From the IMG/VR virus record IMGVR_UViG_3300032053_000108, positions 1-52,267 of that record: a stretch of 52,267 nt of DNA. One strand, given 5' to 3'. Position 1 is the first letter of the stretch. Every line of letters begins with the position of its first letter. The stretch is from a virus (taxonomy: Duplodnaviria > Caudoviricetes). A program made the translations under genes and the position numbers. Shown here in pieces: positions 9,542-41,296 of the stretch. A model generated the notes under the pieces. It was not told the origin of the DNA and searched no databases. It was given only the letters and a program-made list of their open reading frames with translations.

Positions 9542-9823
9542 ATGAACTTTAGAGAATGGCTCTTGAACGAAGGGCAAAACATTAGATTTGGTGACTGGTC
9601 TAAAGATGGGACAATAATCGTCTACATTGACAGCACCCGGTACGTTTTTGTGACCGATGCTCTTTACCACCGCCAACTTCAAAAATTGGCATGCTTTAAG
9701 CCTTGGACTGCCTTAAACAAGATCAAAGAGATGGTAAAAAATAAGGCGGCGACCCAAATAGAGCCACCGCCTCAAGAGAGATTGCCTCAAGAAAAACCGC
9801 CAGTTCATGGCACGTTATTTTAA
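9542..9823 (+). CDS. Hypothetical protein (FREWLLNE N-terminus)
   Basis: 93 aa; CTAAATA 5 nt before the ATG. Confidence 0.7.
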   Translation: MNFREWLLNEGQNIRFGDWSKDGTIIVYIDSTRYVFVTDALYHRQLQKLACFKPWTALNKIKEMVKNKAATQIEPPPQERLPQEKPPVHGTLF

Positions 9824-11101
9824 TTCTTTGATGATTCTTGCAGCTAAGTCCGAACCAGATGTAACTGCGCCTTCCATGTATCCAATGAACTTATAGCATG
9901 TATGCTCGCCTGCGAAATGCAGATTTCCAATGCCCTGTCTCAAAATTGGACCGAGCTTTGTGATCTCCCCAGGTGCCGGGAAAGAATATCCACACTTCGT
10001 CCAGCGATCAGTTATCCAATTGACCAGTTCACTGCGAACAATAGACTGGTTGATATTTGGATAAAACTCCTCCAACTCATCAAGCAATTCCTTTTCGGCA
10101 TTTACTGATTTTGCAGAATCGCCGCCGCTGAATATCACAATGGCAGAATAATCAACTTGGATTTGACCTTCTGTGCCGTTCCATGTTTCGTTGATTTTCC
10201 TGTCGCCCTTGGCGTTTTGCGACACGTTCTTGTCGATCCAATATTTGCTTTCGACTGCCGAAAGATGCTTGATATTCATGCCCATCTGAGGAGCAAAACC
10301 ATCAGGCAATTCCGGTGTGAAACGAATAGTAGACCACAATGAAGGTGGAATTGCCAATACAACAATATCGGCCTCATGCTTTATGCCATGAGCGTCTACA
10401 ACAACCACATTCGGCTCAGTGATGATCTGCGTTACCGGGCAATTCAAAGTCAATCTAGTGCCTAGTTTTTGAGCAAACTTCAATGCGAACTGTTGGTTGC
10501 CACCCTTGGTGCGGTAGCTTTCGGTATCACTCCAGAATTTATCGAGGCCACCGCCTCGAATCAAAACTAGGTTGCCCAAAAGACTTTGCTTATCAGAGGT
10601 CACGCCGTTGTCACTCGATACCTGAATATCGAACAGATATTTGGCTATTGCCGAAGCATCTTGAGTGTAAATCCATTCTCGCATCGAAATCTGATCCAGA
10701 TATTCGGCTCGTGGAGACAACCAAGGTTGGTTAGCATCAATATCAACAGCCATTTCCGACAACGCATTTTGCATTTTGGATATTTCTGTTTTGATATTTC
10801 CGTATTCTACCTGCGACAATTTTTGTTGCTTCAGGATGATCGGTGTTTCAGCGTCATTATCTTCGGCTTCCAAAAATTCGAGGCCGAACTCAAGAGCGTA
10901 TCCGATCAAGCAATAGTGGTTTGAGCCGATAAGCTCCCCACCAAATTCGACGTTCATGCCAGAGATGAAATCGTCTTTGCTGTATACTCGGACACCAACT
11001 CGGTTGCGAGCTTCCAGAACTTGAACGGTATGACCAGCGGTCATTAGCTCGTATGCACAAGCAAGGCCGGAGAATCCTGCTCCGATTACAATTATTTTCA
11101 T
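9815..11101 (-). CDS. FAD-dependent flavin monoamine oxidase family protein
   Basis: GAGFSGL dinucleotide fold, LEARNRVG, FAGEHT...GYMEGAV.SG. Confidence 0.9.
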   Translation of the reverse strand: MKIIVIGAGFSGLACAYELMTAGHTVQVLEARNRVGVRVYSKDDFISGMNVEFGGELIGSNHYCLIGYALEFGLEFLEAEDNDAETPIILKQQKLSQVEYGNIKTEISKMQNALSEMAVDIDANQPWLSPRAEYLDQISMREWIYTQDASAIAKYLFDIQVSSDNGVTSDKQSLLGNLVLIRGGGLDKFWSDTESYRTKGGNQQFALKFAQKLGTRLTLNCPVTQIITEPNVVVVDAHGIKHEADIVVLAIPPSLWSTIRFTPELPDGFAPQMGMNIKHLSAVESKYWIDKNVSQNAKGDRKINETWNGTEGQIQVDYSAIVIFSGGDSAKSVNAEKELLDELEEFYPNINQSIVRSELVNWITDRWTKCGYSFPAPGEITKLGPILRQGIGNLHFAGEHTCYKFIGYMEGAVTSGSDLAARIIKELK

Positions 11102-11163
11102 GGAATCCTTCCATAGTAAAAGAAATACCCATACTGGTACTACCGTATTTATGCGCTACAACC

Positions 11164-11758
11164 AAACTAAAAGAAAAAACCTGGGATCAAATGGACGGAA
11201 GCGGTAAAAATACGTTCTATCTGGCTTGATCGAAACGAATTTCGTGTCTAGGATATTGACGCTCGGTGAAATAAGTGCATCCAAATAGCCGAGTGAAAAC
11301 CTTCAATAAGGCATACAGGTCATCGCTGCTGGGATAGAAATATTCCTTCAGATTTCGGACAGCCTTTGATGCTACAGCCCCAATACCCCGGATTGGTTCG
11401 AGGGCCTGATTTACTGGATAGGGTTTCTTCCTCAAAAGAGGTCTTAGGTGGCAATGGGCCGACGTGTAGCGGCTAGTCGGAGAGTAATCTCCGAGGATTG
11501 AATAAGAGCTAGGATTCAACACCCACCAACGGCGTGCCTCGTCGCTCAGATAAACGAGGTTGGGATAAATCACAAAGAAACCGATATAATCCGCTGAACC
11601 TATAATCGCTCCAACGGAAGTTGGGTGTAAATCAGAAAGAGCTTTAGAGCTAACTTATTGTTGGGATTACAGCCGAAATTTTCGGCTATTGTATAAGTGA
11701 CTAATTACAGTTGCTTGTACAATGAATAATCCCAATAATAAGAAGGCTCTTTTAGTTT
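11164..11758 (+). ncRNA. Candidate large (~595 nt) structured non-coding RNA, family unrecognised
   Basis: 11-bp closing helix 11164-11174/11748-11758, three GNRA-capped stems, 15-16 bp helices with G-U pairs that work only on the + strand; no credible ORF. Confidence 0.7.
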
Positions 11759-11821
11759 ATAAATAATTATAAGAAGCGTTTGTTGTACACCCAACAAAGA
11801 AACAAGAGACAACGAACAGTC

Positions 11822-11850
11822 TTGCAATCAAAGCGTTTGAGTCTTATACT
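11822..11850 (+). promoter_or_regulatory. Sigma70-type promoter for polA
   Basis: TTGCAA-N17-TATACT. Confidence 0.7.
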
Positions 11851-11862
11851 TAACCAAGAAGG

Positions 11863-11879
11863 GTGCCTTTCATTGGCAC
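11863..11879 (+). promoter_or_regulatory. Leader hairpin/operator, copy 1 (upstream of polA)
   Basis: GTGCC-TTTCATT-GGCAC, identical to 40025-40041. Confidence 0.65.
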
Positions 11880-11907
11880 ACTGCCAAGGATGTCATAAAC
11901 CGCATGA

Positions 11908-13227
11908 TTGAGACACATGGACCACTCGCAACTGGCAAAGGCTCTTACCGATACGGTGGGGCCAAATGTGTTTATCTGTTTCCAGCCGGAAGTGCTTGAC
12001 TTCACGGATCGGGCAGTCGTACCTGAATTGCAAATATTCAGTTCGAGTGGGCAAATCAAAGTTATGCTCACGGACGAAGTTTTGCCGATACTCTTGCCAA
12101 TGTTGCGGCTGAGTATTTTTGGAAAGAGCAACAAGATTGTCGCTTGGAATTGGAAGAACCTCGTAAGTTTCATTCTGGCCAAGACTGGCAAGACGTATCC
12201 CGTCGATGGGGCAATTATTGACTTGAAGATAATCGAAACTTATTGCGGGCGCAAGTTCAATGTTCCGAAGACACTGATCGAGGCAATGAACAGACTGAAA
12301 GACCTCATCACCACTGGTATGTGGAAAGAGGTTGAGACGGTTTATCGCAAGGTTCATATACCGCTCATCACTACGGTCATCCCTCATCTCGAAACTGTTG
12401 GCATCCTCAATACGCAAATCGGCAATAGGGTCTATGCGTATTACGAAATTAACGGCCAGGAAAATGGTCGTCTGAAATGTTCTGGCGAGTATCAGCAGGG
12501 CTATGTCCCGCACGCCATGAAGCCGGAGACACGGCAGGTTCTCAAGCCTCGCTCTGAGAGCGATCTGTTCATGGTTTTTGATTACAAGGGCATGGAAGTC
12601 TTCATGCTGGCCTGGATGAGCAAAGACCCGCTATTGCAGGAGTTTTGCCGGGAGCCGGATGTTTATGTTGCCCTTTACGAGAAAATCACCGGCAAGGAAT
12701 GCGAAGGAAAAAATGATCGTGAAATGGCGAAAAAATTCTTTCTGCCGGTTATATATGGACAGTCGGCTTATTCATTAAGTCAACGCTGCGGTGTCGCCCT
12801 GGATGTCGCAGAGATTATTGTAGAACGCATTGACGCTTTGTTTCCGGTTGCTTTGGCCTTCATCGAGGGTTATCAGAAGCAGCTTCAAGAACTCGGATAT
12901 GCCAAAGACATCTTTGGCAAACGCCGTTCAAGTTTCGAGGAAGGCAAAGAATATTCTGTCAGAAACTTCGCAGTTCAATCACCGGCATCCGTCGTGTGTT
13001 TGGAAAAGTTATCCCACCTATATTTCGCACTCAAAGATAAAACCGACCTCGCCTACACCGTCCATGACGGTTACGCTGTGTATGCAACGAAGGAGAACTG
13101 GAAAGCCATAGCAAAACTTGGCCGAGATGTTCTTACTGGCGAGTCAGATTTATGCCCCGGTTTACGGCTCAGAGTAACTTGCCGTGCTGGTCGCAACCTT
13201 GATGATCTGAAGTTACTCCGCACCTAG
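11908..13227 (+). CDS. polA: Compact family A DNA polymerase (apparently thumbless, degenerate 3'-5' exonuclease)
   Basis: Motif A FDYKGMEV, motif B REMAKKFFLPVIYG, motif C VHDG, ENGRL, RNFAVQSPAS; only 439 aa. Start may be ATG 11917. Confidence 0.88.
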   Translation: MRHMDHSQLAKALTDTVGPNVFICFQPEVLDFTDRAVVPELQIFSSSGQIKVMLTDEVLPILLPMLRLSIFGKSNKIVAWNWKNLVSFILAKTGKTYPVDGAIIDLKIIETYCGRKFNVPKTLIEAMNRLKDLITTGMWKEVETVYRKVHIPLITTVIPHLETVGILNTQIGNRVYAYYEINGQENGRLKCSGEYQQGYVPHAMKPETRQVLKPRSESDLFMVFDYKGMEVFMLAWMSKDPLLQEFCREPDVYVALYEKITGKECEGKNDREMAKKFFLPVIYGQSAYSLSQRCGVALDVAEIIVERIDALFPVALAFIEGYQKQLQELGYAKDIFGKRRSSFEEGKEYSVRNFAVQSPASVVCLEKLSHLYFALKDKTDLAYTVHDGYAVYATKENWKAIAKLGRDVLTGESDLCPGLRLRVTCRAGRNLDDLKLLRT

Positions 13228-13234
13228 AGGACCA

Positions 13235-13792
13235 ATGTTAGACATTTGCATAAATTACAGCATTAACGAAGAAGAGTACCTAGAGCTTGAACATCGTTTC
13301 GGTCGCCTCTGTTGGCACGCCGCACACGAACTCAAGAAGAAGAACTCTCGCAACAACTACACCGATGATCCCGAAGACATCAAGCAAGAACTCCAGATGT
13401 CTATGCTCAGAGCCGGTAGCTATTACAAGCGACAGATATACATTGAAAAATGTCTTGCCGTGGCAAAGAAACATGCCACCGACGAGCTTATGCAGCATAT
13501 CATACAAGAGCTAGAGAACTTGTGGGCTAACCGAACTCGACATGGCGCAAACCGCCAGAAGTTCGGGACGTTCCAAGAACAGCTTCTCCAGAAGATCGTT
13601 CGGCAAATTGTTCCGAAAGAGGAGAGGCCCAATAAGAAAGAGAACTTGAAGATTGACGCCAAGTTCGCTACTTATTGCAAAGCCATTGTCTGGAATGGGC
13701 AGAAAAGCATGGGTAAGAAGATAACTAGAGAGAAAGCAATCCGATCTGGCCAAGTAAGCCTTTCTGAATTCGATTACTTGGGTACGGTATAA
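13235..13792 (+). CDS. Sigma-factor-like protein (region 2 only; candidate late sigma)
   Basis: EDIKQELQMSMLRA and AKFATYCKAIVWN resemble sigma70 regions 2.2-2.4; ends soon after VSLSE, so no region 4. Confidence 0.55.
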   Translation: MLDICINYSINEEEYLELEHRFGRLCWHAAHELKKKNSRNNYTDDPEDIKQELQMSMLRAGSYYKRQIYIEKCLAVAKKHATDELMQHIIQELENLWANRTRHGANRQKFGTFQEQLLQKIVRQIVPKEERPNKKENLKIDAKFATYCKAIVWNGQKSMGKKITREKAIRSGQVSLSEFDYLGTV

Positions 13793-13949: not shown

Positions 13950-14540
13950 ATGGAACCCAAATCAAGACCCAAAATAACCACTGGATATGGCGATGATGGA
14001 TGGACTTACGCCGGAATCCATAAGCAATGTGCAAAAGATGATTTTGTCATTGACACCCTGGGCGACCTTGATGAACTTAATTGTTGGTTGGGTCGCACTA
14101 GAGAGTTGTATCCACAATTCGATGAAGACCTGAAGACGATCCAAGGCAACATTTTTGAGCTTGGTGTATTCGTCGTACAATATCGCCCGCCCTTCACTCT
14201 TGAGGATGTTCGCTGGTTGGAGAGCAAGTCTGTAGAACTCGAAAAAGACCTGCCCGACCTCAAGAACTTTATTCTTCCTCACTACCCTTCTGAAGTTCAC
14301 ATTGCACGAGCGGTATGCCGTCGTGTAGAACGTAAGCTATGTTCTTTCATGCGACAAGCAAACCGCATGATGTCAGAACTTCCAATCAATGAATCGGTTG
14401 ATTCTGAGGGATTCAAATTTATCGTTCCCTACATCAATCGCCTCAGCGATTATCTCTTCATCATGGCCCGCTATTTGTGCTATTCTGCTGGGAAAACAGA
14501 AACCATATGGCAAGGCACAAAACTGGAGGCAAGTAAGTGA
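13950..14540 (+). CDS. pduO: PduO-type ATP:cob(I)alamin adenosyltransferase
   Basis: TTGYGDDG, GDLDELN, FILP, HIARAVCRRVER, YINRLSDYLF. Confidence 0.92.
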   Translation: MEPKSRPKITTGYGDDGWTYAGIHKQCAKDDFVIDTLGDLDELNCWLGRTRELYPQFDEDLKTIQGNIFELGVFVVQYRPPFTLEDVRWLESKSVELEKDLPDLKNFILPHYPSEVHIARAVCRRVERKLCSFMRQANRMMSELPINESVDSEGFKFIVPYINRLSDYLFIMARYLCYSAGKTETIWQGTKLEASK

Positions 14541-15046
14541 AGAAAAAGAGTGTCGAAGTAGAAATCAAAAGTTACGTCATCGTTCACGCTCGTAATCCTG
14601 ATGGAAAAATATTGCTGGTTCTGAAAGATAGACCAGAGTGGCAAAAGGGAAGATTGAATTTGGTTGGCGGCAAAATTGAGCCTGGAGAAACACCCACTCA
14701 TGCCGCCATGCGTGAATTGAAGGAAGAGTCGGGACTCATTGGCGGTCCAGTGATTCCTAAGTTGTGCGGGGCAATCAAGGGCGTTGATTGCTTAATTTAT
14801 TGCTTCGCTGTGGATGTATATGACAAAGTAATCAATCCACGAGAAGGCGAAACAGAAAAAGTCGATTGGTATCCTCTGGAAGTGCTTGACGATCCAAGAC
14901 TTATGCCTAATTTAAGGCTAGTCATTCCGATGTTGCAAATGGGCATCATGGATTGGGTTATCTCTGACCACAAGTCGTCTTTGGGTGTGCCTACTCACGA
15001 GGTTATGGTATCCTTGCGTATAAATAAGCCTTTCGTGAATGGGTGA
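14537..15046 (+). CDS. NUDIX hydrolase
   Basis: Nudix box GGKIEPGETPTHAAMRELKEESG. Confidence 0.92.
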   Translation: MKKKSVEVEIKSYVIVHARNPDGKILLVLKDRPEWQKGRLNLVGGKIEPGETPTHAAMRELKEESGLIGGPVIPKLCGAIKGVDCLIYCFAVDVYDKVINPREGETEKVDWYPLEVLDDPRLMPNLRLVIPMLQMGIMDWVISDHKSSLGVPTHEVMVSLRINKPFVNG

Positions 15047-35119: not shown

Positions 35120-35749
35120 ATGAAAAAGACTGATCTTCAGTGGCTTACTGCCATTATGAATTCCGAACTGGACGCTGGCACGATCAGCGGTCGAGTGATA
35201 TTGGATCGCTTGCGATTGATTGACGAAGACTCTCGTAAGACGGCTCCGTATCTCGATCACCGATATGCACCCTTTTACTATCATCTCGGCAAGCATGTGG
35301 AGCCTCTATCCGTAATGGAAGTAGGCTTTAGCCTTGGCTTGCTGAGTGCCAGCTTCTTAACATCATGTAAGTCAGCTAAGAGATTTTTTGGCTACAAAGA
35401 AAACAGTTCTGATTTCACTCCTATCCGAATCGGTAAGGCAAATATCAACCTCAGATTCAAGGGCGAGGCAAAGTTTTACATTGGAAGTGTTTACGATCAG
35501 GAATTTATCGACATATTTTCACCAAATCCGTGGGATTTAGTCATACTTAATGATGAGACGGTCTACGACAAACATCTGGAATATCTGGATGCCGTATGGC
35601 CCCAAGTCAGCGAACACGGTCTTATAGTTGCCGAATATATCGACCGACACATTCCTGCCAGGGACGCTTTTTTTGCTTTCTGTGAGAGTAAGAACCGAAA
35701 GCCAGTGGTGTTTGAGACAAGATACGGGACCGGCTTACTCCAAAAATGA
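35120..35749 (+). CDS. Class I SAM methyltransferase-like protein
   Basis: VMEVGFSLG, WDLVILND, GLIVAE. Confidence 0.65.
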   Translation: MKKTDLQWLTAIMNSELDAGTISGRVILDRLRLIDEDSRKTAPYLDHRYAPFYYHLGKHVEPLSVMEVGFSLGLLSASFLTSCKSAKRFFGYKENSSDFTPIRIGKANINLRFKGEAKFYIGSVYDQEFIDIFSPNPWDLVILNDETVYDKHLEYLDAVWPQVSEHGLIVAEYIDRHIPARDAFFAFCESKNRKPVVFETRYGTGLLQK

Positions 35750-36921
35750 AAGGTGATTTAATGAAAATGAATAAGGATGAGTTGAGAGAATATTTGAACA
35801 AGGACATTGAAAGTCTTCGTTCCCTGAATTTCAGTGAGCCGTATATCAAGTCGGTATCTGAAAATACAAGCAAATGGGCAGGCACGGGCTTATTGGGCGG
35901 GATTAACGATCCGCATATTGGCCGCAACGTCGCAACCCTTTTGGAAAACCAAAGGTTATTCAACGAGCAGTGGCCGGGAAACGGTGCCTCATTGATCCCA
36001 GAAGGAGCAGAAACCGATATTCCAATGGAACATTGGGCCAGCCAGTGGAAGCGTATCAGTATCCCTGTGATGCGACGTGTATTTGGTGAGAATTTTATTG
36101 GTCATCATATTGTGTCTGTTCAGGCCATGAAAAGCAGTCAAGAGAATACTTATTTGATCGGCTTTGATGGTCGCACTATGTCTGGAATGACCGAGGCGAA
36201 TACTCGTCGTCTTTCTGTTTCTTGGGAGCCGCCCATCTGGAAATACTCAGAAGACGGCAGTGTGAAATGGGTTGAGTTTCGTGGTGAAAAATTCATGTCG
36301 GGACTGGATGGAGAAGCAGAAGCGACTGCAATGTTCTCTGAGGCCGTTTGTCAAGATTTTAGTCGAGAGATCATTCGAGACTTAGCCTTAAACGCTGGCA
36401 AGTTAGCCGTTTACGAATACAAGGACGAGAATCATCTTTTGTCGCTTGTTGAAGGAATGAGTGCTTATATTGCCGCCAAGTGTTATAACCGGGAGGCCAC
36501 TTGGGTTGTAACGAGTCCTACGATTGTGAAGCTGTTGGGAGAATATATCGAACCGGCTACAGATCAGTGGAACAACATCGTAAATATCAATGCCCAGAGG
36601 AATGGCGTCAACAAAGTTGGGGTGTTGAATAAAAAATGGCAACTGTTCGAGGATTCTACAGCACCAGCGGGAAATATACTGTTGGGGCTTAAAGACCATC
36701 GAAATCATTATTTTTCAGGATATGTATTTGCCCCGTTTTTGCCAGTTAATCCTACTCCATCTTGGAGAACTGATGAACAAGAGCAAACTGGACAAGTATT
36801 GGCCCGCTACGGGAAGCGGCTCACCAATCCTGGCTTTTACGGCACGATCAAGATTGAGAACTTGCCAGAAGCCACTCCCTTAGAGAAACCAGAACCGGAA
36901 GAGGCCGAAAGCGAGGAATAA
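35746..36921 (+). CDS. T4 gp23-like major capsid protein homolog, internally shortened
   Basis: KWAGTGLL, ATLLENQ, IPVMRRVF, VSVQAM, TRRL.VSW, GLDGEAE, REII, VVTSP, GYVFAPF.P, RYGK in gp23 order. Confidence 0.8.
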   Translation: MKGDLMKMNKDELREYLNKDIESLRSLNFSEPYIKSVSENTSKWAGTGLLGGINDPHIGRNVATLLENQRLFNEQWPGNGASLIPEGAETDIPMEHWASQWKRISIPVMRRVFGENFIGHHIVSVQAMKSSQENTYLIGFDGRTMSGMTEANTRRLSVSWEPPIWKYSEDGSVKWVEFRGEKFMSGLDGEAEATAMFSEAVCQDFSREIIRDLALNAGKLAVYEYKDENHLLSLVEGMSAYIAAKCYNREATWVVTSPTIVKLLGEYIEPATDQWNNIVNINAQRNGVNKVGVLNKKWQLFEDSTAPAGNILLGLKDHRNHYFSGYVFAPFLPVNPTPSWRTDEQEQTGQVLARYGKRLTNPGFYGTIKIENLPEATPLEKPEPEEAESEE

Positions 36922-37454
36922 TGGGACAAATATATGGAATCAAACATTTGTTGTCTGGAAAGATATACATCGGAAGCACAACTAAGCCAAAGTCAAGGAA
37001 AAAACAACATTTTAGTGATTTGAGAAAAAATCGTCATTGCAATAAACATTTGCAGCGAGCTTTTAACAAATACGGGGAAGGTGCATTTCAATGGTTGGTG
37101 ATAGAAACCACCACTGAAGATTTGGCATTTAGAGAGAAATACTGGATAGATTATTTTTATTCTGATGATGGCATACATGGTTATAACGGAACAAATCAAC
37201 CATACGCTCCAATGCGTGGCAAGACTTTTTCCGAAAAAACAATTGCGATGTTCAAAGACGGCAGAAGAAAAGGATCAAAGCACCCCAATGCTAAAATAGA
37301 TGAAAATGTAGTAAAGTCTATTTTTTCATTAAGAGAAAAAGGACTTACTCAAAAAGAGATTGGACTTCAATTGAGCATACACAATTCAAATGTAAGTTTG
37401 ATATTAAATGGCAAGGCGTGGAATCATGTAAAGGGGGTGAATTGTGGGATTTGA
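36921..37454 (+). CDS. GIY-YIG homing endonuclease with C-terminal HTH
   Basis: QIYGI...IYIGST, HCNKHLQRAFNKYG, terminal TQKEIG HTH. Confidence 0.88.
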   Translation: MGQIYGIKHLLSGKIYIGSTTKPKSRKKQHFSDLRKNRHCNKHLQRAFNKYGEGAFQWLVIETTTEDLAFREKYWIDYFYSDDGIHGYNGTNQPYAPMRGKTFSEKTIAMFKDGRRKGSKHPNAKIDENVVKSIFSLREKGLTQKEIGLQLSIHNSNVSLILNGKAWNHVKGVNCGI

Positions 37455-38196
37455 ATGTACTTACCATTACCACGAACGAGTTGAGGGCGACTACAACAAG
37501 GAGGAAACTAAGTCCTTCAAGAAGAAAGTCGGCGACCCGTTCGATGATGTATCATTGGAAAAGTTGGCTGGCGCTGTCATGGCCCAGCTTGCTCGTCGTG
37601 ACGTTTGGATTGTCGATGTGGAGGTCTTTGAGTTATCTAAGAAGCCTGTCAGCTTCAAAGAGTCCAAAGGCGGGATCATCTTAAAGAACAAGAAGTTTAA
37701 CTTCGATGGTGGTGGCGAGGACGCATCCACCGTTATTGTTCAGGATATGGTTCAAGCACCACCGCCAGTTCAATATGTTCAACCTGCCAGCAATGGACAG
37801 CATGTGAATATTCAAGGGCAGGCACCGCCAAACCCCTCCAGGGGAGTGCATCCTCACGAACAGGGGCAACCTCGTCGCCCGATAGACTGGATGGTATTTT
37901 CGCCGGAGCTTCCGCAGATGGCAGAAGTGAAGCAGAAGAACCTCCGATTCACTCCCGAAAAGAAATATCCAGTATTCGAGAAGCGAGAAGGCGTTGGTGG
38001 GGAAGTCTTTGTCATGATCGACGATACCGGACGGGAACAGTTGGTTTCCGACAAGTATTTTGTCCCAGGAAATATTCAGTTGATGGCCGATAGAGAGCTT
38101 GGCTTCTCTCAGAACCAACAACAGCGTGATGGTGGGAAGCTATATTGGGGTGGTGCAAACCAAGAACCTGATATGCCAGAAATCAGACGCCGATAA
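37444..38196 (+). CDS. Hypothetical protein
   Basis: 250 aa; GGGG RBS before GTG. Confidence 0.75.
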   Translation: MGFECTYHYHERVEGDYNKEETKSFKKKVGDPFDDVSLEKLAGAVMAQLARRDVWIVDVEVFELSKKPVSFKESKGGIILKNKKFNFDGGGEDASTVIVQDMVQAPPPVQYVQPASNGQHVNIQGQAPPNPSRGVHPHEQGQPRRPIDWMVFSPELPQMAEVKQKNLRFTPEKKYPVFEKREGVGGEVFVMIDDTGREQLVSDKYFVPGNIQLMADRELGFSQNQQQRDGGKLYWGGANQEPDMPEIRRR

Positions 38197-38204
38197 ACAA
38201 AAAC

Positions 38205-38231
38205 AAAAGCCCGGAGCAATCCGGGCTTTTT
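38205..38231 (+). terminator. Intrinsic terminator
   Basis: AAAAGCCCGGA-GCAA-TCCGGGCTTTTT; same stem as 9132-9164. Confidence 0.85.
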
Positions 38232-38284
38232 CTATTTATCGAACTCCATTATCCTCGTATACTTCAAATATCTCGGAGGGAAAT

Positions 38285-38812
38285 ATGGCTACTCAAAAAC
38301 AAAAAGAAAAGAAGAAGAAGGATCGTGAACGAGTTGCCAAGGCACGGGTCTTGGTACGTCGTGAAGCTCTGCGTAAGGAGCGAAAGGCTGAAAAGGAAGA
38401 ACAGCGTAAGTTCGAGGAAGCTCAAGAGATTATGCACGGCAAGATGTTGCCGATCATCAATAATCCAGCAGTTGTTGCCCAGCGTGAAGCGGCTCATGCG
38501 AGAGCCGTATCAGATAAGCTGAAGCAAAACCTGGAGATATTGGAAGCTCTTGAACGTGAATATGAAGCCGAGCAATTTGCCCGTGCGGAAATGAACGATA
38601 AGCTCGAATCTGAAGGGCATAAGACAATGCGTGAGAAGATGGACGCATTGCACCAAAAGGCCCTGGCTATGACAGGCAAGGCAGAAGCATTAGCTCAAGC
38701 CGAGGAAGAATATGTTGCACAGCATAGTGGAACGGAATGTGTTGGACACCAAAATATTGAAGAAGAAATTGTTGTAGAGCCGACTATTTCGATTTCTTCG
38801 CAAGAAAAATAA
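38285..38812 (+). CDS. Charged coiled-coil hypothetical protein
   Basis: GGAGG RBS, ATG 38285, K/E-rich helix. Confidence 0.7.
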   Translation: MATQKQKEKKKKDRERVAKARVLVRREALRKERKAEKEEQRKFEEAQEIMHGKMLPIINNPAVVAQREAAHARAVSDKLKQNLEILEALEREYEAEQFARAEMNDKLESEGHKTMREKMDALHQKALAMTGKAEALAQAEEEYVAQHSGTECVGHQNIEEEIVVEPTISISSQEK

Positions 38813-38828
38813 AAAACAACTAAAGCTA

Positions 38829-38857
38829 TTGAGTCTCCCGCCGATATAGCTTACAAC
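38829..38857 (+). promoter_or_regulatory. Possible sigma70-type promoter for ssb
   Basis: TTGAGT-N17-TACAAC. Confidence 0.4.
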
Positions 38858-38912
38858 ATCACTCAACGAACGCCGACGACTGTTACTGTGACTTTCCAAG
38901 ACGTTCAGAATT

Positions 38913-38929
38913 GTGTCTGTCAATGACAC
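38913..38929 (+). promoter_or_regulatory. Leader hairpin/operator, variant copy (upstream of ssb)
   Basis: GTGTC-TGTCAAT-GACAC, a compensatory variant of the polA/recA motif. Confidence 0.55.
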
Positions 38930-38940
38930 AGCACTATTAA

Positions 38941-39954
38941 ATGACTAAGGAGCTAACTGTGGCGAACACTGAATATGAAGGACTTGATCTATCGGAGATG
39001 CAACACGAATACGAGCGAGTCAATACCGAGCCGGGTTCTTTCGGCGGCGATGACTTCCTTGAAAAATTTGTGCGTCTCCCGGAGCGTGACGGATTTACGA
39101 TTATGCGTATCCTGCCTCGCAAGAAGGGTGGCAAGCATTATTGTGCAACCCGTGTTCACACGCTTTCCAACCCCACCACCAAGAAGAAGAGAACCTATCA
39201 CTGCCCGAAGGTTCTCGTGCAGACGGATAAAGGCCCTCGTTGGCAGGGCGAATGTATCATCTGTAAGTATTACGGTGATCTCTGGCAGAAGTCTGAGTCC
39301 TTGAGCGGTAAGGCTCAACAAGACTTGCAGAATCAGGCACGGGCCATCAAGCCAGTCGAACGGTATTACTACAACGTAATCGTTCGTGCAGAAAAAGACT
39401 TCAAGACTGGCGAAAACAAGAAGAACGTCGGACCCAAGATTTACTCTTGCGGCAAGACGGTTCACGCCAAGATTGTTCGTGCTATCGTCGGCGACGAAAC
39501 CGCAGGCGAAAAGGGCTTGGGCGACATCACTCACCCAATGACTGGTCGGGATTTCCGAGTGGTCAAGAAGGTTGTCAAGGGCGGTGGTGGTGCTGAATAT
39601 CCTAACTACGATAACTCGAAGTTCGAGGATGTGGCTCCTGCTGGTTCGCCGGATGAATTGTCTACCTGGATTGAAAACCTTAACGATCTTCAGGCGCTTC
39701 GGGCCATCAAGTCCGAAGATGAATTGAAGCACGCTCTCCGTGTCCACTTGGGCATGGTCAAAGAGGGTGAATCTCAAGACGATGACCTGAACGAATTCCG
39801 CAATGCTGGTCACACGGCTTCATCGCCTTCGACCGCATCGGAATCTGTTCGTGAGGAATTGACTGTTAGCAGCACTCCTGCCGCTTCTGAAGGCAAGAGC
39901 GGAGAAGAGATTCTCGCTGACGACGATTTCATGAAAGAACTCGAAGGCATGTAA
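38941..39954 (+). CDS. Single-stranded DNA-binding protein, gp32-like
   Basis: MRILP, H..C...CIIC Zn ligands, RYYYNVIV, GRDF, YDNSKF, acidic tail. Confidence 0.85.
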   Translation: MTKELTVANTEYEGLDLSEMQHEYERVNTEPGSFGGDDFLEKFVRLPERDGFTIMRILPRKKGGKHYCATRVHTLSNPTTKKKRTYHCPKVLVQTDKGPRWQGECIICKYYGDLWQKSESLSGKAQQDLQNQARAIKPVERYYYNVIVRAEKDFKTGENKKNVGPKIYSCGKTVHAKIVRAIVGDETAGEKGLGDITHPMTGRDFRVVKKVVKGGGGAEYPNYDNSKFEDVAPAGSPDELSTWIENLNDLQALRAIKSEDELKHALRVHLGMVKEGESQDDDLNEFRNAGHTASSPSTASESVREELTVSSTPAASEGKSGEEILADDDFMKELEGM

Positions 39955-39970
39955 CCTTCTGTTCCACTAG

Positions 39971-40006
39971 GCCATCCAGGGCCTCAAAACCCTGGATGGC
40001 TTTTTT
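39971..40006 (+). terminator. Intrinsic terminator
   Basis: GCCATCCAGGG...CCCTGGATGGC-TTTTTT. Confidence 0.88.
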
Positions 40007-40024
40007 CTTGAGTTTTCAATAAAT

Positions 40025-40041
40025 GTGCCTTTCATTGGCAC
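40025..40041 (+). promoter_or_regulatory. Leader hairpin/operator, copy 2 (upstream of recA)
   Basis: GTGCC-TTTCATT-GGCAC, identical to 11863-11879. Confidence 0.65.
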
Positions 40042-40060
40042 TCAATACTTAGAGGTTCTA

Positions 40061-41296
40061 ATGGCAAAGAAGAAAGCTGCTGCGGGTGGTGGAGTTGATG
40101 ATGATTTTTTCGAGTCGCTGGCCGAATCAACGGGCGGTGATGTTTTGGATACCATAGATTCTGTTCGGTATTTTGTTGATACCGGCTCACTCGCTATCAA
40201 CTATATTTGTTCTGGGCAGTTCATCACGGGAGGTATTCCTGGTGGCAAGCTGACAGAAATCTATGGACCCAACTCGTCCTCGAAGTCTTTGCTAGGTGCG
40301 AATATTTTGTTCGGCACACAACGAGCAAAGGGCATTGCGGTTCTAATGGACTGCGAGAACTCTGCGAATAAAGAGTTCATTCAACAAGCCTCTCACTGTA
40401 ACTTGAAGCGTATTGTGCGTCATACGCCACAGTCGCTTGAGCAAGTATTCACCAAGATGTACAAGGTGATCGAGAAGGCTCGTGAAAAGATTTCGATGGA
40501 AATCCCTATCGTTATTGTTTACGACTCAATCGGCGTGTCTCCGTCCGAGCGTGAGTTGAAGGAAGTGGCTTTGCCGGAAGGTTATACTGCTGCTGACTTC
40601 AAGCGTATTGTTGGTGGTCACGAACAGCCGGGCGAACGGGCCAAGATTTGCTCCCGTGAATTCCGCAAGCTGAACACCGTGATGGAGAAGAACAACGCTA
40701 CCGTTGTCATCCTAAACCAGACTCGTGCTAAGATCGGCGGTTATGCCCCTATGGGTCAGCAGGCGTTGACTACGGCTGGTGGTGGCAACGCACTTCCTTT
40801 CTATGCTTCCTGTCGTCTTGAAACCAGGACGCAAATGAAGATCGAAAGGAAGATCACAGCGAAGAAGAAAAAGATTCTCGGCATCAACGTGAAGCTGAAG
40901 AATGTAAAGAACAAGACTCACCGGCCCTTTGTCGAGTCGGAGAACATTCAGTTGTTGTTCGATAAAGGCATCAACCCACTCAGCGGTCTGCTAAGTTGTT
41001 TGCTGGACGCAGAACGCATCGAGATCAAAGGCTCTGGAAACTTTGTGGTGAAAGAGCCTTGGGCCGGTGGGTCTGAAGTCAAGTTCAAGGCCAGCATGGA
41101 ACGCAATGACCTTCCTGCTGAAATCTTGATGCAATGTCCGGCTTTGATCGACGCAATTTCTGCGGAGCAGATCAAGGATTACCTGGAGCCATTCCAAGAG
41201 TCCATCAACTTCCGACCTGAAGACAATACCGACATCGAATTGAGCGGTGTTGGCGATGACGATGATGACGATATTGATGAAGAGTTAGAAGGCTAA
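40061..41296 (+). CDS. recA: RecA/UvsX recombinase
   Basis: DTGSLAIN, GGIPGGKLTEIYGPNSSSKS, YDSI, LNQTR, GGNALPFYAS.R, KNK. Confidence 0.92.
   Translation: MAKKKAAAGGGVDDDFFESLAESTGGDVLDTIDSVRYFVDTGSLAINYICSGQFITGGIPGGKLTEIYGPNSSSKSLLGANILFGTQRAKGIAVLMDCENSANKEFIQQASHCNLKRIVRHTPQSLEQVFTKMYKVIEKAREKISMEIPIVIVYDSIGVSPSERELKEVALPEGYTAADFKRIVGGHEQPGERAKICSREFRKLNTVMEKNNATVVILNQTRAKIGGYAPMGQQALTTAGGGNALPFYASCRLETRTQMKIERKITAKKKKILGINVKLKNVKNKTHRPFVESENIQLLFDKGINPLSGLLSCLLDAERIEIKGSGNFVVKEPWAGGSEVKFKASMERNDLPAEILMQCPALIDAISAEQIKDYLEPFQESINFRPEDNTDIELSGVGDDDDDDIDEELEG

Follow-up and report, generated by a model that had tools for sequence, protein, structure and literature searches.

We analysed a short family A DNA polymerase gene (polA) and the interval upstream of it in a 52,267-base virus record of IMG/VR (IMGVR_UViG_3300032053_000108; the window, meaning this whole stretch of DNA). 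The interval 11151-11907, here called the window element, is a module linked to polA that is conserved and encodes no protein. In relatives of this phage, the corresponding slot holds a structured RNA family with strong covariation and without an Rfam match, a conclusion that sequence comparison makes well supported. As judged from the same comparisons, the window element fills this slot and is not detectably homologous to the canonical RNA of the relatives, so that it would either have replaced that RNA or have diverged from it past recognition. An initial annotation had placed a candidate large structured RNA at 11164-11758 and suggested a tie to the unusual polymerase. The tie between a non-coding RNA and this PolA gains support through the relatives, in which 26 of 43 loci have the covarying RNA, and not through the window's own sequence.

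A structured RNA upstream of PolA in relatives

Searches with PolA yielded 14, 9, 65 and 1 loci, with PolA identities of 33-100%. The motif GTCTTWG lies at -391 to -543 from the PolA start in 25 of 42 distinct upstream regions, the window included, and an evident fold around this motif is common to all but the three window-type sequences. Covariance model R1, which describes this RNA, matches 26 of 43 related sources with E values of 1e-3 to 1e-29, in every case on the plus strand and upstream of PolA. The RNA is located 0.4-0.55 kb from PolA on the same strand, and the polymerases that it accompanies are 39-77% identical. Three examples are listed here, and R1 matches 23 further sources.

L057:2423-2699, plus strand: canonical RNA matched by R1
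L023:2414-2660, plus strand: canonical RNA matched by R1
L064:2471-2730, plus strand: canonical RNA matched by R1

Domain d of this RNA (23 pairs) was scored on a plain MAFFT alignment of 16 sequences (A6), the same alignment from which its four-helix structure was drawn. In it, 90.2% of cells are paired, compared with 37-51% for slid partners, and double changes occur at 18 of the 23 pairs, which none of 500 shuffles matches. For the number of cells paired, the number with double changes and the covariation score, too, the observed value lies beyond all 500 shuffles. On a full-length alignment (A5, 16 sequences), RNAalifold predicts 32 pairs, 28 of them with double changes, and a long-range GUAC helix that closes an RNA of ~260 nt; in this MAFFT alignment the subfamilies are out of register at the extra helices (the 5' hairpin, P-y and hairpin D). 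The plus strand of the canonical RNA is fixed by pair 18-33, which is G-U in 11 of 16 sequences. The fold of the RNA is compact and comprises several helices, and three unpaired motifs in it are invariant, namely GUCUUWG, an ACGRG loop and AGGU.

The 17 sources that R1 does not match comprise two of the window type, four that are short of upstream sequence (L024, L047, L088 and L095), four of a variant subfamily (L053-L058) and seven that are distant. Within the variant subfamily, L053 aligns significantly with L023, although both R1 and its iterated successor R2 miss L053-L058. Co-occurrence of an RNA with a short PolA, one of the conditions named in the initial annotation, holds in the form of the canonical RNA for 26 of 43 loci and fails in the window clade and at distant short-PolA loci.

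In L057, a perfect sigma-70 promoter (12/12; TTGACA-16-TGgTATAAT) abuts the 5' end of the RNA, and in other subfamilies a TATAAATA-like box precedes the 5' ACUGAGA, as judged by eye. All five of five large contigs carry the RNA as a single strong copy that adjoins PolA. Secondary weak R1 matches in these contigs (15-23 bits) were rejected, the one in L102 being inside an open reading frame on the other strand. A strict RNA pattern run over IMG/VR finds 14 stretches, 11 of them in contigs already found via PolA; the other three are chance matches, having neither an R1 match nor a PolA. The synteny of RNA and PolA persists despite differing left neighbours.

R1 also matches one locus from a metagenome-assembled genome (L096, 58.7 bits). 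This is RXKI01000130.1, a 13-kb contig that carries the RNA-PolA pair and is binned with a Neisseriaceae (betaproteobacterial) assembly; the bin may be a hint of the host or a binning artefact. In L023, the stretch 2700-2800 between the canonical RNA and polA contains a perfect tandem duplication of ~48 nt (GCTGGGGATACTCTGCGCAGTGAGAGGCTTGACTAGGCTTAAAT). Our full-text literature searches found no description of a PolA-associated RNA; the supplementary tables of PMC10690425, which hold more than ten thousand candidate phage RNAs, may list it.

A conserved non-coding module in the window

The module and its surroundings in the window comprise the following features.

9815-11101, minus strand: flavin amine oxidase gene, a divergent neighbour outside the module, replaced in L002 and 5'-truncated in L004
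11151-11907, plus strand: non-coding module travelling with polA, left border from L002
11151-11389, plus strand: left part of the module, variable, with 22 substitutions per 100 nt relative to L004
11390-11640, plus strand: strongly conserved core, richer in GC, with 4.5 substitutions per 100 nt relative to L004
11164-11174, plus strand: 5' arm of an 11-bp closing helix (partner 11748-11758), not conserved
11213-11237, plus strand: hairpin with three double changes and one break
11217-11654, minus strand: open frame of 145 codons, not a gene
11260-11267/11288-11295, plus strand: hairpin with a few compensatory changes
11479-11492, plus strand: hairpin GGAGA-GUAA-UCUCC, with loop GCAA in L003 and L004, so that GNRA is kept only when read as plus strand
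11610-11625, plus strand: hairpin with a GGAA loop that is kept; its stem in L004 has one double change, two one-sided changes and one broken pair
11640-11810, no strand: AT-rich trough separating the core from the polA promoter (28-34% GC; the window as a whole has 44%)
11646-11750, no strand: inverted repeat whose 24-nt arms are 83% complementary, around two hairpins (a candidate three-way junction); its 16-bp helix is invariant
11822-11850, plus strand: polA promoter-like site TTGCAA-17-TATACT, unique in the window (chance 0.01)
11908-13227, plus strand: polA, short family A DNA polymerase of 439 aa, with a TTG start at 11908 and an ATG at 11917

Three distinct sequences of the element occur in the collections, one in the window and L002, one in L003 and one shared by L004, L005 and L022. 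Identity to the window is 100% for L002, 95% for L003 and 85% for L004, L005 and L022, with 97% in the core. Contigs assembled from four DNA runs add one variant, X18, with 27 substitutions, and reveal no starts, ends or joints. The element is full length in all five contigs of this PolA type and in the X18 contig. Further copies were not found by blastn against 50,697 phage records or against 1.4 Mb of related loci, and two exact probes of 18-19 nt recover from IMG/VR only the same four contigs, apart from a 31-nt match in L019 that we attribute to chance and do not count as a copy.

The left border of the module was located by comparison with L002. From 11151 rightwards (junction at L002:815) the two sequences are 100% identical; leftwards they are unrelated, and a different minus-strand gene replaces the amine oxidase. 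By this comparison, 11151 is a sharp recombination junction. Because the identity with L002 starts at this position, and because the oxidase is 5'-truncated in L004, the element belongs to the side of polA. The divergence of polA from L004 is 12.8 substitutions per 100 nt overall and about 25 at third positions, and the much lower value for the core looks like selection on nucleotide sequence.

The interval 11102-11907 is the longest gap between accepted genes (open reading frames of at least 100 aa) in the window. The initial annotation had seen no credible open reading frame here. A minus-strand frame of 145 codons is in fact open in the window, and the claim survives in that comparison with relatives shows this frame not to be a gene. 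The frame has two in-frame stops in L003, whose PolA is 98% identical, and is frameshifted in L004, whose PolA is 89% identical. Substitutions against L004 fall on codon positions 1, 2 and 3 in the ratio 20/22/13, compared with 44/17/108 in polA, and codon-position bias is absent even between the closest pairs. The frame has no Pfam or PHROG match, and a HMMER search over 1.84 billion representative proteins returns only its own gene call. Since the frame is broken in relatives, lacks third-position bias and has no protein homologue, the element is non-coding. A small plus-strand frame at 11369-11476 was also considered and rejected as a gene, its start not being kept in L004.

The same comparisons bear on whether the element is a decaying relic, whose apparent conservation would stem from recent recombination among close phages. 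Such a relic might be what is left of a gene, or of a mobile element that took the place of the canonical RNA. Such a history would fit a frame that is open in the window alone and broken differently in L003 and L004, as well as the indels of L004, most of which occur in local groups netting to a multiple of three bases. Mosaic tracts of 95-98% identity are found within polA too, and the element is restricted to one shallow clade. However, no protein homologue was found in Pfam, PHROG or the 1.84 billion proteins, codon-position bias is missing even from the closest pairs, and the element is kept at full length in every contig of this PolA type and in X18. We therefore consider a relic quite improbable.

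Fold and family membership of the window element

All helices listed in the initial annotation are present in the window. These include the 11-bp closing helix, in which AAACTAAAAGA at 11164-11174 pairs with TCTTTTAGTTT at 11748-11758; three GNRA-capped stems (GAAA at 11337, GTAA at 11484 and GGAA at 11616); an arm closed by GCTACA at 11371 and TGTAGC at 11465, one pair of which is lost among the relatives; and a 16-bp helix (11654-11669/11727-11742) with one G-U pair. The 15-bp hairpin at 11688-11702/11709-11723 is likewise present with its three G-U pairs, and has three broken pairs and one one-sided change in the relatives. For the large architecture drawn from these helices, with the closing helix and a three-way junction as RNA, comparative support is absent. 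Three of the 11 pairs of the closing helix are lost without compensation in L004 and another (11173 G>T) in the X18 contig, and this helix is regarded as chance. The 16-bp helix, an AGCCG hairpin and a CCUC/GAGG hairpin are invariant across the relatives.

Covariation, which the initial annotation had named as a check on the RNA, is weak for the window element and strong for the RNA of the relatives. When 76 pairs of the annotated helices are scored on the three distinct sequences (including one out-of-register helix of four pairs, the CCUC/GAGG hairpin), two pairs have double changes, a count equalled or exceeded in 51 of 500 shuffles; the corresponding count for the relatives is 0 of 500. 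RNAalifold predicts 209 pairs from the three sequences, and because only six have double changes against ~23 that are broken, a global fold of the element is unsupported. Compensatory changes are confined to three short hairpins. In the GGAA hairpin, two A-U pairs become C-G or U-G in L004, and this hairpin, the GUAA loop that changes to GCAA and the hairpin at 11213-11237 are local features that lend support to a plus-strand reading.

The whole 595 nt of the annotated element folds more stably than shuffles on both strands, with z values of -5.1 on plus and -4.8 on minus. This equal signal comes largely from the symmetric inverted repeat at 11646-11750 and, being symmetric, the repeat could equally act at the DNA level. 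The window element might thus act as DNA only, as a divergent promoter/operator or a protein-bound origin, without a functional RNA. This would fit the equal folding of the strands, the promoter-like sites that are present on both strands and the five TTGGG-containing motifs found, in both orientations, at 11557-11798. In addition, the same slot in L087 (PolA 38% identical) is filled by iterons: at 2582-2962, six direct repeats of a 39-nt unit occupy the 400 nt before PolA. Nonetheless, L004 carries mutations in three of the five TTGGG copies, a near-invariant, non-repetitive core of 250 nt is unusual for protein binding sites, conservation of the GNRA loops is strand-specific, and the slot of the relatives is an RNA gene. 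A role as DNA only is therefore unlikely in our view.

Known RNA families do not account for the element. In a cmscan run against Rfam 15, the first check proposed in the initial annotation, no family reaches its gathering threshold in the whole window; the families covered include OLE, ROOL, GOLLD, HEARO, group I/II introns, RNase P, tmRNA and riboswitches. With the cut-off relaxed to E values of up to 10, 11000-12000 yields only unrelated sub-threshold matches (E 0.22-6). Among seven relatives nothing is found at E<=0.1, two canonical RNAs give only noise, and cmscan detects no ROOL, GOLLD, OLE or raiA in the window or in the seven relatives. ARAGORN finds no tRNA or tmRNA in the window.

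By position, the window element resembles the PolA-upstream RNA. It lies 0.4-0.55 kb upstream of a short PolA on the same strand, followed by the AT-rich trough and the polA promoter, and a GUCUUAG heptamer is found at -467, inside the family range given above. A 16-mer of the window matches L023 at 14 of 16 positions, and a hairpin that differs in sequence then follows in both. The 5' signature GUACYNCC, 10-40 nt, AAACYUG (GUACUACC-N-AAACCUG) is present in 14 family-member loci and occurs once in the window, at 11137-11183 on the plus strand, with a chance of 0.02 for a pattern that was chosen post hoc. Its GUAC part is left of the border at 11151; the signature straddles the edge of the module and is lost in L002, L003 and L004. 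The canonical RNA was not found in window-type records of 52 kb, 223 kb and 99 kb (G000, G001 and G002), and the window-type loci L032 and L033 have no R1 or R2 match. An nhmmer match at 37999-38048 of the window (E 9.3) was rejected, since it is inside a gene.

Possible roles of the slot

Tentatively, and with confidence well below even, we favour the view that the slot is the locus of a non-coding RNA linked either to an origin or to PolA. The slot would form the start region of the replication module, from which a non-coding transcript would arise, represented by the canonical RNA in the relatives and by the 11390-11640 core in the window clade. This transcript might act beside the AT-rich stretch as an origin RNA, either as a pre-primer or by forming an R-loop, and PolA might extend it as happens with ColE1 RNA II or the T4 oriF/oriG transcripts.

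Several aspects of the surroundings are consistent with this arrangement. The DnaB-like helicase gene and other replication genes sit downstream of the slot. The window type and 20 canonical loci have a layout in common: a block richer in GC (-550 to -300) is followed by an AT-rich trough (-250 to -100; in the 20 canonical loci, 11% below the mean of the locus) and then by the polA promoter. The promoter-like site that the initial annotation assigned to polA is present at 11822-11850, and TTGCAA-N17-TATACT also precedes polA in L023, L024, L036, L090 and L064; late-promoter-like TATAAATA boxes are not enriched (3 compared with 1.2 expected). In the window, cumulative G-C reaches its minimum at 11180, at the divergent gene junction. 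The RNA locus of G003 and that of G005 lie at the start of a long rightward block of genes, and local skew there rises from zero or negative values to positive ones. Taken together, the skew, the shared layout and the L087 iterons suggest a replication start region.

Several results weigh against this reading. At its left end, the window element has no recognisable plus-strand promoter, and the core at 11390-11640 folds on the plus strand with a z of only -0.44 against shuffles, compared with -2.35 on the minus strand. The 24 sequencing runs listed for the sequence include no RNA runs. With filters off, the best score in 11000-12000 is 5.9 bits (E 0.55) against R1 and 7.1 bits (E 0.34) against R2, and nhmmer finds only a 13-nt GAAAAAACCTGGG match between the window and the canonical RNA (E 0.15). 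In local alignments of the window with six family members, shuffled sequences score as high as the real one in 33 to 281 of 300 cases, whereas this happens in none of 300 when member is aligned with member. Identity of the core may reflect a recent recombination tract, because positions 12700-13099 of polA are also 90-98% identical to L005. The skew minimum is weak evidence for an origin, since GC skew in these phages follows gene orientation, and the global G-C minima of G003 and G005 are elsewhere than the RNA locus. Finally, the seven distant PolA loci (33-44% identity) have no RNA detectable by R1, and in three of them PolA is immediately preceded by coding genes.

A rather doubtful alternative is that the slot encodes a stand-alone, trans-acting structured RNA, such as a regulator, a ribozyme or a ribonucleoprotein partner, which is PolA-linked and unrelated to origin firing; the window element would then be a diverged or analogous counterpart. 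A canonical RNA with its own promoter, a compact multi-helix fold and invariant unpaired motifs would suit this role, as would the preservation of synteny with PolA beside differing left neighbours and of GNRA loops on the plus strand of the window. However, strict adjacency to one gene is needless for action in trans, the window element is neither demonstrably structured nor homologous, and the function of such an RNA is not readable from sequence.

The polymerase itself is unusual. PolA matches the Pfam family DNA_pol_A (PF00476, E 8.3e-26), and motifs A, B and C are present when aligned to Taq and Bst, with motif C reading VHDG. An AlphaFold model built from a 7-sequence alignment (predicted local distance difference test score 81.5, predicted template modelling score 0.84) matches, in Foldseek and along the entire length of the model, the Bst, Taq and Klenow large fragments as well as Pol nu and Pol theta, with E values of about 1e-19 and TMq of about 0.7. 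In a profile alignment, residue 171 of PolA corresponds to residue 304 of the Bst large-fragment chain, and thus ~133 residues are missing from the exonuclease-like domain and the thumb. The model contains a beta-alpha exonuclease-like domain at 1-135 and, before the palm, only the helices 123-135 and 138-164. A full-size thumb, with about 100 aa, two long helices and a tip, is not seen in it. The label thumbless in the initial annotation is therefore roughly right, in that the thumb is reduced, with a predicted stump of two helices remaining. Compared by eye with what we take to be the Klenow Exo I motif, the equivalent position of PolA reads DFTD and lacks the glutamate, which suggests a polymerase without proofreading.

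The initial annotation had raised the idea that the RNA is a template, a built-in primer or a scaffold that replaces the missing thumb. A thumb reduced to two helices and a synteny of RNA and PolA that extends across 39-77% PolA identity speak for this idea. Relatives with the same short architecture nevertheless do without the RNA: in L082, L085 and L030, coding genes are directly upstream of PolA, whose matches span about the same residues, and the window clade itself lacks the canonical RNA. We regard all three of these roles as very improbable. A broader version, in which the miniaturised PolA works with a dedicated upstream structured RNA (as pre-primer, origin activator or bound cofactor) and the window clade has swapped in a larger non-coding RNA, is less far-fetched and still improbable.

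Comparison with known systems provides partial parallels for an origin-linked or PolA-linked RNA. In ColE1, RNA II, a non-coding transcript several hundred nucleotides long, starts at a promoter and runs into an AT-rich region, and Pol I, a family A enzyme, extends the processed RNA. The T4 origins oriF and oriG pair a promoter with a downstream unwinding element. The phage described here carries T4-like genes for gp23, gp32 and UvsX. Unlike these examples, the canonical RNA has a compact, covarying multi-helix fold, and there is no sequence or Rfam similarity to them. Retrons and DRT systems also place a polymerase gene beside a structured non-coding RNA, but the polymerase of this phage belongs to family A, is no reverse transcriptase and forms part of a phage replication module, with no msr/msd-like pair.

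Other comparisons concern the RNA more than the enzyme. ROOL, GOLLD, OLE and raiA, orphan large RNAs known from bacteria and phages, resemble the canonical RNA in being structured, non-coding and carried on phage genomes. The canonical RNA is smaller than these (~260 nt) and is tied to one neighbouring gene, and the window element differs from them in having no proven global fold. The T4 gp43 operator and the gp32 pseudoknot are RNA elements upstream of replication genes, and the gp32 leader of T4-like phages is mentioned in PMC10690425. Whereas these known elements overlap the ribosome binding site of the mRNA that they regulate, the element here ends >100 nt before polA, with a conserved promoter between. 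Closest to the window element is the PolA-upstream RNA of the relatives (R1/R2), with the same slot, strand and GC-rich/AT-rich/promoter layout, although the window element is ~2.5 times longer and has no promoter visible at its 5' end.

Taken alone, the window element is a modest result, namely a conserved orphan non-coding region. The wider finding is an RNA family locked in synteny, across many huge-phage contigs, with a small, thumb-reduced and apparently non-proofreading PolA. If this RNA marks or fires an origin, its sequence would help to locate origins in huge phages that have not been cultured, and an origin RNA of this kind would add a second natural example to that of the ColE1-type plasmids, in which a structured RNA feeds a family A polymerase. 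An RNA that binds the polymerase would represent a new kind of polymerase cofactor, and a dedicated RNA that works with the small PolA would make this the first PolA-ncRNA system. Because both parts are short, the RNA-PolA pair is directly testable in vitro.

The window is a fragment of a very large phage, as its CheckV completeness of 11% indicates, and relatives of this phage include contigs of 223 kb and 462 kb. Its replication module encodes a SNF2-type helicase, an HNH protein and a DnaB-like helicase in addition to the family A polymerase. An open reading frame of 185 aa without a family match (13235-13792) immediately follows polA. Genes for the flavin amine oxidase, a PduO-type cobalamin adenosyltransferase and a NUDIX hydrolase surround the replication genes (9815-11101 and 13950-15046). 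T4-like genes for a gp23-type capsid protein, gp32 and a RecA/UvsX homologue (35746-41296) coexist with the family A polymerase (11908-13227); the replicative polymerase of T4 is a family B enzyme. A GIY-YIG endonuclease gene (36921-37454), which may encode a homing endonuclease, begins where the gp23-like major capsid gene (35746-36921) stops.

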